This document shows positions 59,987-60,266 of a stretch of DNA of 64,000 nt, one piece after another. The DNA comes from Oscillospiraceae bacterium. GTDB lineage: Bacteria; Bacillota; Clostridia; Oscillospirales; Ruminococcaceae. The notes under the pieces were generated by a model. The model saw nothing but the letters and a program-made list of their open reading frames with translations. It was not told the DNA's origin and did no database searches. Location of the stretch: NCBI GenBank assembly GCA_009780025.1, contig WRAV01000002.1, positions 38,126 to 102,125 of the forward strand. Direction: 5' to 3'. The translations under genes and the position numbers were made by a program. The number at the start of each line of letters is the position of its first letter. The first letter of the stretch is position 1.

Positions 59987-60166
59987 CGAGAATTTTACAT
60001 TTGCTTTTTTGATCGGCAGGCTTCCTGCCAACTAGCGAGGCAGCATTTGTCGTATGACGTCGATTTTTGTTGTATTTATGTGAAAATTATGGCAATATGT
60101 AACTGCAATCAGCAGCGTCCAGACGCTGAGGGTGGTTAGGTTGTTCCTCCATTCGGAGGTGATGTT

Positions 60167-60250
60167 GTGGTTACATACAGCGAGCTGTTCTATTTTTCGC
60201 TCGTAATCATCGGCGTTATTGGCCTATGCCTAGCGTATAAAAAGAAATAA
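60167..60250 (+). CDS. 27-aa single-TM type I toxin-like peptide (holin-like toxin family)
   Basis: Not in the ORF track. MVTYSELFYFSLVIIGVIGLCLAYKKK; GGAGGTGA RBS paired with upstream CCTCC; promoter TTGTAT-17-CAATAT at 60070-60098. Confidence 0.8.
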   Translation: MVTYSELFYFSLVIIGVIGLCLAYKKK

Positions 60251-60266
60251 CCGCACCTAGGCGGTT
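60241..60266 (-). terminator. Terminator for the chromate-transporter transcript, overlapping the toxin stop codon
   Basis: Minus strand AACCGC-ctaggt-GCGGTT-ATTTCTTT; homologous to the 53195-53212 hairpin. Confidence 0.6.

Follow-up and report, generated by a model that had tools for sequence, protein, structure and literature searches.

A predicted type I toxin gene of a widespread clostridial family abuts a convergent chromate-transporter gene where its antitoxin promoter would be expected

The DNA analyzed here is a stretch of 64,000 nucleotides (the window; coordinates given without a contig name refer to it) from a genome of termite-gut origin that comprises 2.06 Mb in 72 contigs. At 60 kb, a short open reading frame (ORF) on the plus strand converges on a chromate-transporter gene on the minus strand. 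The features of this locus are listed below.

60070..60098, plus strand: weak sense promoter, TTGTAT (60070-75)-17-CAATAT (60093-98), with TGn from 60090
60130..60138, plus strand: leader motif GGGTGGTTA, the counterpart of a family-wide GGCGGTT
60146..60159, plus strand: hairpin CCTCC-ATTC-GGAGG that sequesters the Shine-Dalgarno (SD) sequence, read from the sequence and the fold
60167..60250, plus strand: 27-aa toxin ORF that begins with GTG; single hydrophobic helix, KKK tail
60249-60266 (stem), T-run being the complement of 60239-60248: shared terminator AACCGC-ACCTAG-GCGGTT, from the terminator scan
60274..60837, minus strand: chrA-like gene (Pfam PF02417), the second of two half-size chromate-transporter genes

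The toxin mRNA has a leader of ~60 nt, in which the CCTCC arm (60146-60150) can pair with the strong SD GGAGG (60155-60159), 7 nt before the GTG codon. The most hydrophobic 15-aa window of the encoded peptide scores 2.57. Its TAA stop codon (60248-60250) is spanned by the minus-strand terminator, a 6-bp stem (60266->60249) with a loop of 6 that is followed by ATTTCTTTTT. A preliminary description of this DNA had pointed to the GTG-started 27-aa frame with one transmembrane segment and a Lys tail, to the hairpin that occludes the SD, and to an opposite-strand terminator hairpin across the stop codon; all three are present as claimed, and the SD hairpin covaries across relatives. The promoter proposed there, TTGTAT-17-CAATAT, stood up in part. 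The sequence exists and its position is conserved in both paralogues and in termite-gut relatives, where it reads TCGACA-17-TAATAT with a TG, but it is weak, with 3+3 of 12 consensus positions plus a TGn extended -10, and it was not among the sites returned by a consensus promoter scan. The first base of its -10 element is C in the 60-kb copy and T in the relatives. Transcription from this weak promoter would begin near 60105. The leader motif GGGTGGTTA is complementary to a 3' element, TAACCGCACC (60248-60257), and in the minimum-energy fold of the 60-kb mRNA the two are paired over 10 bp with one bulge; because the overall fold energy is unexceptional (z -1.45), we treat this leader-3' pairing as a prediction. 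The scan listed no plus-strand terminator site after the toxin hairpin, which suggests that the toxin mRNA reads on into chrA.

The chrA-like ORF is full length: it matches Pfam Chromate_transp (PF02417) with an E value of 2e-36 over profile positions 3-166 of 166, and its homologues, the closest only 54% identical, cover residues 1-186 of 187. Its stop codon follows that of the toxin at a distance of 23 nt and is 7 nt away from the hairpin. At 62417-62448 of the window (minus strand), just upstream of a 306-aa ORF that precedes the two chrA genes, there is a strong 12-bp terminator hairpin, which suggests a three-gene unit made up of this ORF and both chrA genes. No consensus promoter was found for the chrA operon. 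The junction of D-aminoacylase gene, toxin and chrA recurs with zero differences in contigs from two termite-gut sequencing runs of different studies, either of which may be the source of this DNA, and no empty-site variant of it was found in the termite-gut DNA runs. In these runs, contig depth was 2-3-fold higher over 60128-60259, an interval that takes in just the leader and ORF. Numerous short and diverged contigs stack up there, which points to a gut community with many related cassettes.

With the back-translated motif M-V-T-Y-x-E-L-F-x-F-x-L-V as query, a scan of one genome per species gave 74 cassettes in 70 loci of named genomes. Of 151 genus representatives of the same bacterial family, 25 had the peptide according to a profile search, with up to 8 copies per genome, and a leader-specific pattern retrieved five cassettes from metagenome contigs, four of them new close relatives and one (G014) already counted. 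Altogether, there are ~100 relatives in Oscillospirales (Anaerotruncus, Ligaoa, Butyricicoccus, Angelakisella, Intestinibacillus), in other Clostridia and in some Coriobacteriia; further hosts include Anaerotignum, Lachnospiraceae, Anaerovorax, Syntrophomonas and the coriobacterium Ellagibacter. Their presence in Actinomycetota points to transfer between phyla. The consensus peptide is MVTYxELFQFCLVIIGVIxL....KKK. Aligned to it, the 60-kb peptide is 59-77% identical and departs mainly by Q9Y and C11S; Y9 and residues other than Cys at position 11 also occur in other members. A family-alignment HMM, in which the 60-kb peptide is one of the rows, retrieved the 60-kb ORF from its own genome with an E value of 7e-15. 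In this genome, the cassette recurs in two further copies, at 53 kb in the window and on contig C20, with E values of 5e-21 and 7e-20.

Established models largely pass the family over. The 60-kb peptide has no Pfam match at E<=10, Hol_Tox (PF16935) included, and no NCBIfam match, type I toxin models included; no Rfam model matched anywhere in the 64-kb window, the intact 53-kb antitoxin included. The homologue and HMM search suggested as a check on the preliminary description returned ~100 relatives and no direct Pfam or NCBIfam match. Among the relatives, 12 of 18 peptides match Hol_Tox end to end at E<=0.1 (best 3.5e-4). In a separate comparison, relatives scored 13.4-18.2 bits (E 0.002-0.07), and all matches fall under the gathering threshold of 23.3 bits. 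Eight of the 18 match a PHROG 'holin' family (best E 8.6e-5), and single relatives weakly match PepG1 (NF041589, E 0.028) and ComI (NF052249, E 0.024), at 14 bits against cut-offs of 55-70. One of nine family peptides is present as a called protein in a collection of 15 billion sequences. The exact 60-kb peptide is absent from that collection, which fits its having been called unannotated, and neither the family peptides nor the motif was found printed in the literature. Collectively, these matches suggest a family that is distantly related to Hol-Tox/TxpA/SprG, widespread in Clostridia and mostly unannotated.

Several members are placed unusually. Tandem arrays with a period of ~330-650 bp occur, and copy number is strongly expanded in Anaerotruncus sp. 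G3(2012), which carries at least 6 cassettes on one 121-kb contig (L042, L046, L051, L055 and L057 among the loci), and in Ligaoa zhengdingensis (L036, L069). The toxin ORF was also seen on two Bacteroidota-binned contigs, L018 (in a metagenome-assembled genome labelled Bacteroides thetaiotaomicron) and L054 (Sodaliphilus sp.); L018 has a convergent promoter TTGACA-17-TATGAT with a TG at +93, and L054 has none at +70 to +110. These two cases reflect either mis-binning or transfer outside Firmicutes. At L030 (Oscillospiraceae MAG S33_Bin3), an element inserted right after the stop codon severs hairpin and antitoxin from what is now an orphan toxin; by eye, the C-terminal translation of the element's convergent gene end resembles a large serine recombinase.

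The relatives share a set of RNA features. Almost every cassette has an anti-SD upstream that pairs with the SD, and this hairpin is conserved in 60+ of them with 40 distinct covarying arm pairs, such as CCTCC/GGAGG, CCCCC/GGGGG, CCTCTCC/GGAGAGG and CTTCTTC/GAGGAGG. Most cassettes also pair a leader motif with a post-stop element (GGCGGTT with AACCGCC); in Coriobacteriia, the pair is GGCGGGCTAC with GTAGCCGCC, and leader motif and 3' element co-vary between subfamilies. A terminator that can serve either strand is likewise part of the conserved cassette. In about 60 cassettes, a convergent promoter close to the consensus, mostly TTGACA-17-TATAAT, would start transcription 70-110 nt past the toxin stop. 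It was found in 45 of 69 assessable cassettes from named genomes (start at +70 to +93 in all but two), in 5 of 5 close metagenome relatives (+85 to +100) and in 22 of 24 further, more divergent loci (+76 to +110). The exceptions are cassettes of the Anaerotignum/Lachnospiraceae and Coriobacteriia types and a few rearranged copies. The predicted antitoxin RNA is ~95 nt long and would have its 3' end within the final codons of the toxin. Two hairpins are conserved in the RNA of the termite group, one at the 5' end and an extended one that forms the terminator. Anaerotruncus cassettes also have long antisense-strand open frames, which we judged spurious.

Two subfamilies have no consensus antisense promoter 70-110 nt downstream, one of the Anaerotignum/Lachnospiraceae type (L017, L029, L032, L049, L061, L066, L068, L073, L075, L083) and one of Ellagibacter, other Coriobacteriia and Actinomycetes (L025, L045, L048, L053, L063, L071, L078). 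Peptide, SD lock and leader/3' complementarity are present in both; if these subfamilies have an antitoxin, it would thus be located elsewhere. Complete cassettes very often abut a convergent gene whose stop codon lies 107-116 nt past the toxin stop, right behind the antitoxin -35 (L020, L024, L047, L056, L058, L082 and others). No terminator was noticed between this gene and the antitoxin. In many genomes, transcripts of such convergent genes probably extend across the antitoxin as far as the shared terminator.

The antitoxin 5' domain has features of its own. In L027, L038, L051, L058 and ~20 further loci, it is a same-sense look-alike of the toxin leader (..ACGGTYAGCCCC..) with a terminal C-run that is the complement of the cognate SD, such as CCCCTCC against an SD GGAGGGG. 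C-run and SD match better between own partners (5.02) than between permuted ones (4.63 +/- 0.11), and 0 of 300 permutations reached 5.02. Whole-RNA RNAduplex scoring of leaders against antitoxin 5' domains, a noisy measure, gave z-scores mostly from -2 to +1. The C-run changes together with its cognate SD, which argues that the 5' domain matters, and by analogy suggests SprA1AS-like blocking of the SD in trans. In the termite group, the SD-complementary motif is merely CTCC, so the 3' overlap is probably the main contact there.

These features outline how a normal cassette would work. A moderate promoter would give a toxin mRNA whose SD is locked in the anti-SD hairpin and whose 5' leader is able to pair with the sequence just past the stop codon. 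From a convergent promoter 70-110 nt downstream, an antisense RNA of ~95 nt would be made, with a hairpin and T-run at its 3' end that lie opposite the final toxin codons. The arrangement in the relatives is well supported, by comparative sequence evidence, as the standard type I toxin-antitoxin layout with 3' overlap. A type I or holin-like toxin layout had been proposed for the 60-kb peptide, and the sub-threshold Hol_Tox matches of its relatives and the convergent antisense promoter in about 60 of them bear this out. We also considered that the peptide might be no toxin at all and instead a small membrane protein of different function, such as a ComI-like regulator, with the convergent RNA serving as ordinary regulatory antisense. 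One relative's weak, sub-threshold match to the competence inhibitor ComI would fit this idea, as would the fact that all toxin-family matches lie below threshold. However, the copies are numerous and patchily distributed, with tandem arrays and frequent decay, and the twofold lock on translation and the consensus antisense promoter are features commonly seen in type I toxin-antitoxin loci; we regard a non-toxin role as very improbable.

Set against its relatives, the 60-kb copy has all four marks of the family within 60130-60266: the peptide motif, the anti-SD hairpin, a GGCGGTT-type leader motif and a post-stop AACCGC..GCGGTT hairpin. Its homology to the other copies ends at ~60266, at the hairpin (the minus-strand rows L120-L122 were left out of the 3' alignment from which the end of homology and the position matches were taken). 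Beyond this point, the chrA coding sequence occupies the place of the relatives' antitoxin 5' domain and promoter. By this alignment, the 60-kb copy has evidently lost its antitoxin promoter and, from the 5' end, two thirds of the antitoxin gene, and the hairpin at 60239-60266 is evidently the remaining 3' part of the lost antitoxin gene. A consensus scan of 59900-60900 returned no antisense promoter, and in a relaxed minus-strand scan of 60240-60700, the best match reached 8 of 13 positions without the invariant -10 A. One candidate inside chrA, TTGGTC-18-TCAAAT with a TG (60365->60336), lies at the family-typical distance; we judged it a chance match, as it scores 8/13, has no invariant -10 A and falls in conserved chrA coding sequence. 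The earlier remark that space is lacking for a separate antitoxin promoter thus agrees with a full-length chrA that ends 23 nt after the toxin stop and with the lack of a detectable promoter, and the antisense promoter inside chrA that had been named as evidence against the reading was not detected (best 8 of 13). [quoted passage not shown]

The chrA mRNA would end in the very terminator that the family's antitoxins use, and at least 34 nt of its 3' UTR have a perfect complement in the toxin mRNA. Because there is no antitoxin promoter and chrA runs to the antitoxin terminator, the chrA mRNA is the only possible antisense RNA in cis, and it may act as an antitoxin. It is without the antitoxin 5' domain, which in many relatives has the SD-complementary C-run, and this missing domain may be the active part.

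The toxin side of the locus looks whole. The 60-kb copy is 76% identical in DNA to its paralogues, and its changes relative to other members are largely synonymous or hydrophobic-conservative, which argues that the frame is a real coding sequence. To judge from its sequence, the 60-kb toxin gene is real and intact, whole apart from the weakened -10. A different interpretation is that this copy is a decaying remnant, with a near-silent or harmless toxin that needs no antitoxin, a hairpin and T-run kept as the chrA terminator, and an ORF still open as the loss is recent. The C at the first base of the -10, where relatives have T, and a promoter with 6/12 matches plus the TG would be expected of such a remnant; the genome's other three loci are all visibly decayed; Q9Y and C11S break the near-invariant FQFC motif; and a frame of 27 codons easily stays open by chance. 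This last point also counts against our main reading, as a frame of this length can persist neutrally for some time. However, SD, anti-SD hairpin, leader/3' complementarity, start codon, hydrophobic core and basic tail are all intact despite the 76% DNA identity. Y9 and a non-Cys residue at position 11 are found in other members, and the pattern of substitutions noted above speaks for a maintained frame. We consider decay without need of an antitoxin a minority explanation, well short of probable and still to be reckoned with.

We next describe the genome's other members of the family. Together with the 60-kb copy, they are as follows.

60 kb, plus strand: toxin intact (27 aa); antitoxin promoter and 5' domain lost, chrA abutting
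53123..53206, plus strand: toxin at 53 kb, dead; an 11-nt deletion takes out the hydrophobic core
53184..53314, minus strand: antitoxin gene at 53 kb, intact, no live toxin
contig C20:37643-37793 (L002:1470-1700), minus strand: toxin of 25 aa with altered tail; 41 nt of the antitoxin 3' part
contig C3:28107-28235 (L117:1499-1630), minus strand: toxin absent, antitoxin intact

The 53-kb and C20 copies share promoter position, leader, anti-SD hairpin, ORF start and 3' hairpin with the 60-kb copy. At 53 kb, the antitoxin promoter is TTGACA-17-TAAAAT with a TG (53314->53286), and the predicted RNA (~53279->53184) has two hairpins. The ortholog of this locus, with its 27-aa toxin still intact, lies between rapZ and murB on termite-gut contig L122; relative to it, the 53-kb locus is identical at 79/94 positions in the antitoxin, 46/61 in the toxin ORF and 61/83 in the leader. 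On C3, the antitoxin gene has a promoter TTGACA-17-TACAAT, a 5' hairpin and a terminator, and the only trace of a toxin is 'AAAAAGAAGCAA', a remnant of the Lys codons. This gene lies ~90 nt downstream of a candidate tRNA-like sequence. On C20, an insertion of ~5 nt turns the toxin tail into RHR, and no antisense promoter was found at this copy. Converging on the C20 toxin is a membrane-anchored ORF of 276 aa, of unknown family, whose end lies 58 nt past the toxin stop, in a geometry like that at chrA. As read from the sequence, the genome thus appears to hold two toxins without an antitoxin promoter (60 kb and C20) and two antitoxin genes without a toxin (53 kb and C3).

This inventory changes one point of the preliminary description, in which the chrA mRNA was the only visible antisense partner of the 60-kb toxin: because the genome has two antitoxin genes without toxins, both partly complementary to the toxin 3' end, the chrA mRNA is not the sole candidate. 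Indeed, the 53-kb and C3 antitoxin RNAs might be kept for silencing the 60-kb and C20 toxins in trans, with the chrA mRNA irrelevant. Both orphan antitoxins retain near-consensus promoters, both hairpins and the terminator, and they have the 5' domain that the chrA mRNA is missing. The 53-kb antitoxin is better conserved relative to its ortholog than the dead toxin beside it, although the gap (79/94 against 46/61) is small. Both pair almost perfectly with the 3' end of the C20 toxin (41 nt shared, 93% identity), with duplex z-scores of -7 and -6. For the 60-kb copy, whole-RNA RNAduplex scoring was too noisy and we counted matched positions instead: over 60239-60266, the 53-kb RNA matches at 24/28 positions with two 1-nt indels and the C3 RNA at 23/28. 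However, this complementarity is short and interrupted, and the whole-RNA duplex energies with the 60-kb mRNA (z -1.6 and -1.9) are not above those of shuffles. In addition, the S. aureus antitoxins SprF and SprA-AS each rescue only their cognate toxin, as found for SprG/SprF and for SprA1 and SprA2 (PMC6393307, PMC6393315), which weakens the case for a back-up in trans. Silencing by the orphan antitoxins with no part for chrA therefore strikes us as unlikely, if far from negligible.

Our preferred reading is that the 60-kb locus is probably the toxin half of a standard type I cassette that has lost its antitoxin promoter, with chrA now using its terminator, and that it is silenced by a translational lock together with antisense pairing. 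In the first layer, a weak promoter and the locked SD would keep synthesis of the peptide low. In the second, antisense RNA would pair at the 3' end of the toxin mRNA. Here, chrA transcripts would be a perfectly matched source in cis, over at least 34 nt and over more if the toxin mRNA reads through into chrA, and the two toxin-less antitoxin RNAs would be an imperfect back-up in trans. We infer three silencing routes that do not exclude one another, with the chrA 3' end in cis ranked first, the orphan antitoxins in trans second and self-silencing of a decaying copy third; the toxicity of the peptide, and any antisense effect at 60 kb, are likewise presumed. A stronger version of the first route, in which the 3' end of a housekeeping chrA mRNA took over the antitoxin role and the same replacement happened a second time at C20, seems to us doubtful. 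If such a takeover did occur, release of the toxin would be tied to transcription of the neighboring gene.

Gut Clostridia carry this family very commonly and in multiple copies that annotation practically fails to see, and naming it would clear up many 'empty' intergenic regions. The genome described here amounts to a natural experiment on whether type I antitoxins cross-protect against paralogous toxins. It makes testable whether orphan antitoxins are retained for such cross-protection and whether the 3' end of an ordinary convergent mRNA can replace an antitoxin. The 60-kb system itself is of an ordinary kind in an instructive state of decay and introduces no new principle.

In hok/sok, the antitoxin acts at the 5' end. 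Similar to hok/sok, the family has a predicted pairing of leader and 3' end that would keep the full-length mRNA inert, and its genomes carry mosaics of inactivated copies; the peptides are unrelated, and the pairing in the family is only predicted. The par locus of the Enterococcus plasmid pAD1 (fst / RNA I-RNA II) produces convergent RNAs with a shared terminator used from both strands, holds the toxin SD in a 5' stem-loop and gains extra pairing through direct repeats at the 5' ends. The 60-kb family resembles it in the convergent RNAs, the terminator shared by both strands and the SD in a 5' stem-loop, but has no sequence relation to it. Closer are the Hol-Tox/TxpA-BsrG systems (PF16935), with which the family shares a peptide of ~26-30 aa with one helix and a Lys tail, a chromosomal and multi-copy occurrence, and a convergent antisense RNA over the toxin 3' end, whereas the N-terminus MVTYxELFQFCLV is its own. 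TxpA-like, mostly unannotated sequences in Clostridiales were already noted by Fozo et al. 2010 (PMC2887945). The sequence relation to sprG/SprF and sprA/SprA-AS of Staphylococcus aureus is marginal (PepG1 NF041589, E 0.028, in one relative), and these systems differ from the present genome in that two of its toxins have no cognate antitoxin promoter. The layout is nonetheless alike: toxin and antitoxin RNAs overlap at their 3' ends, there are several paralogues per genome, and in many relatives the 5' domain of the antitoxin, outside the overlap, has a motif that complements the toxin SD, as has been shown for the 5'-domain motif of SprA1AS and SprA2AS (PMC6393307, PMC6393315).
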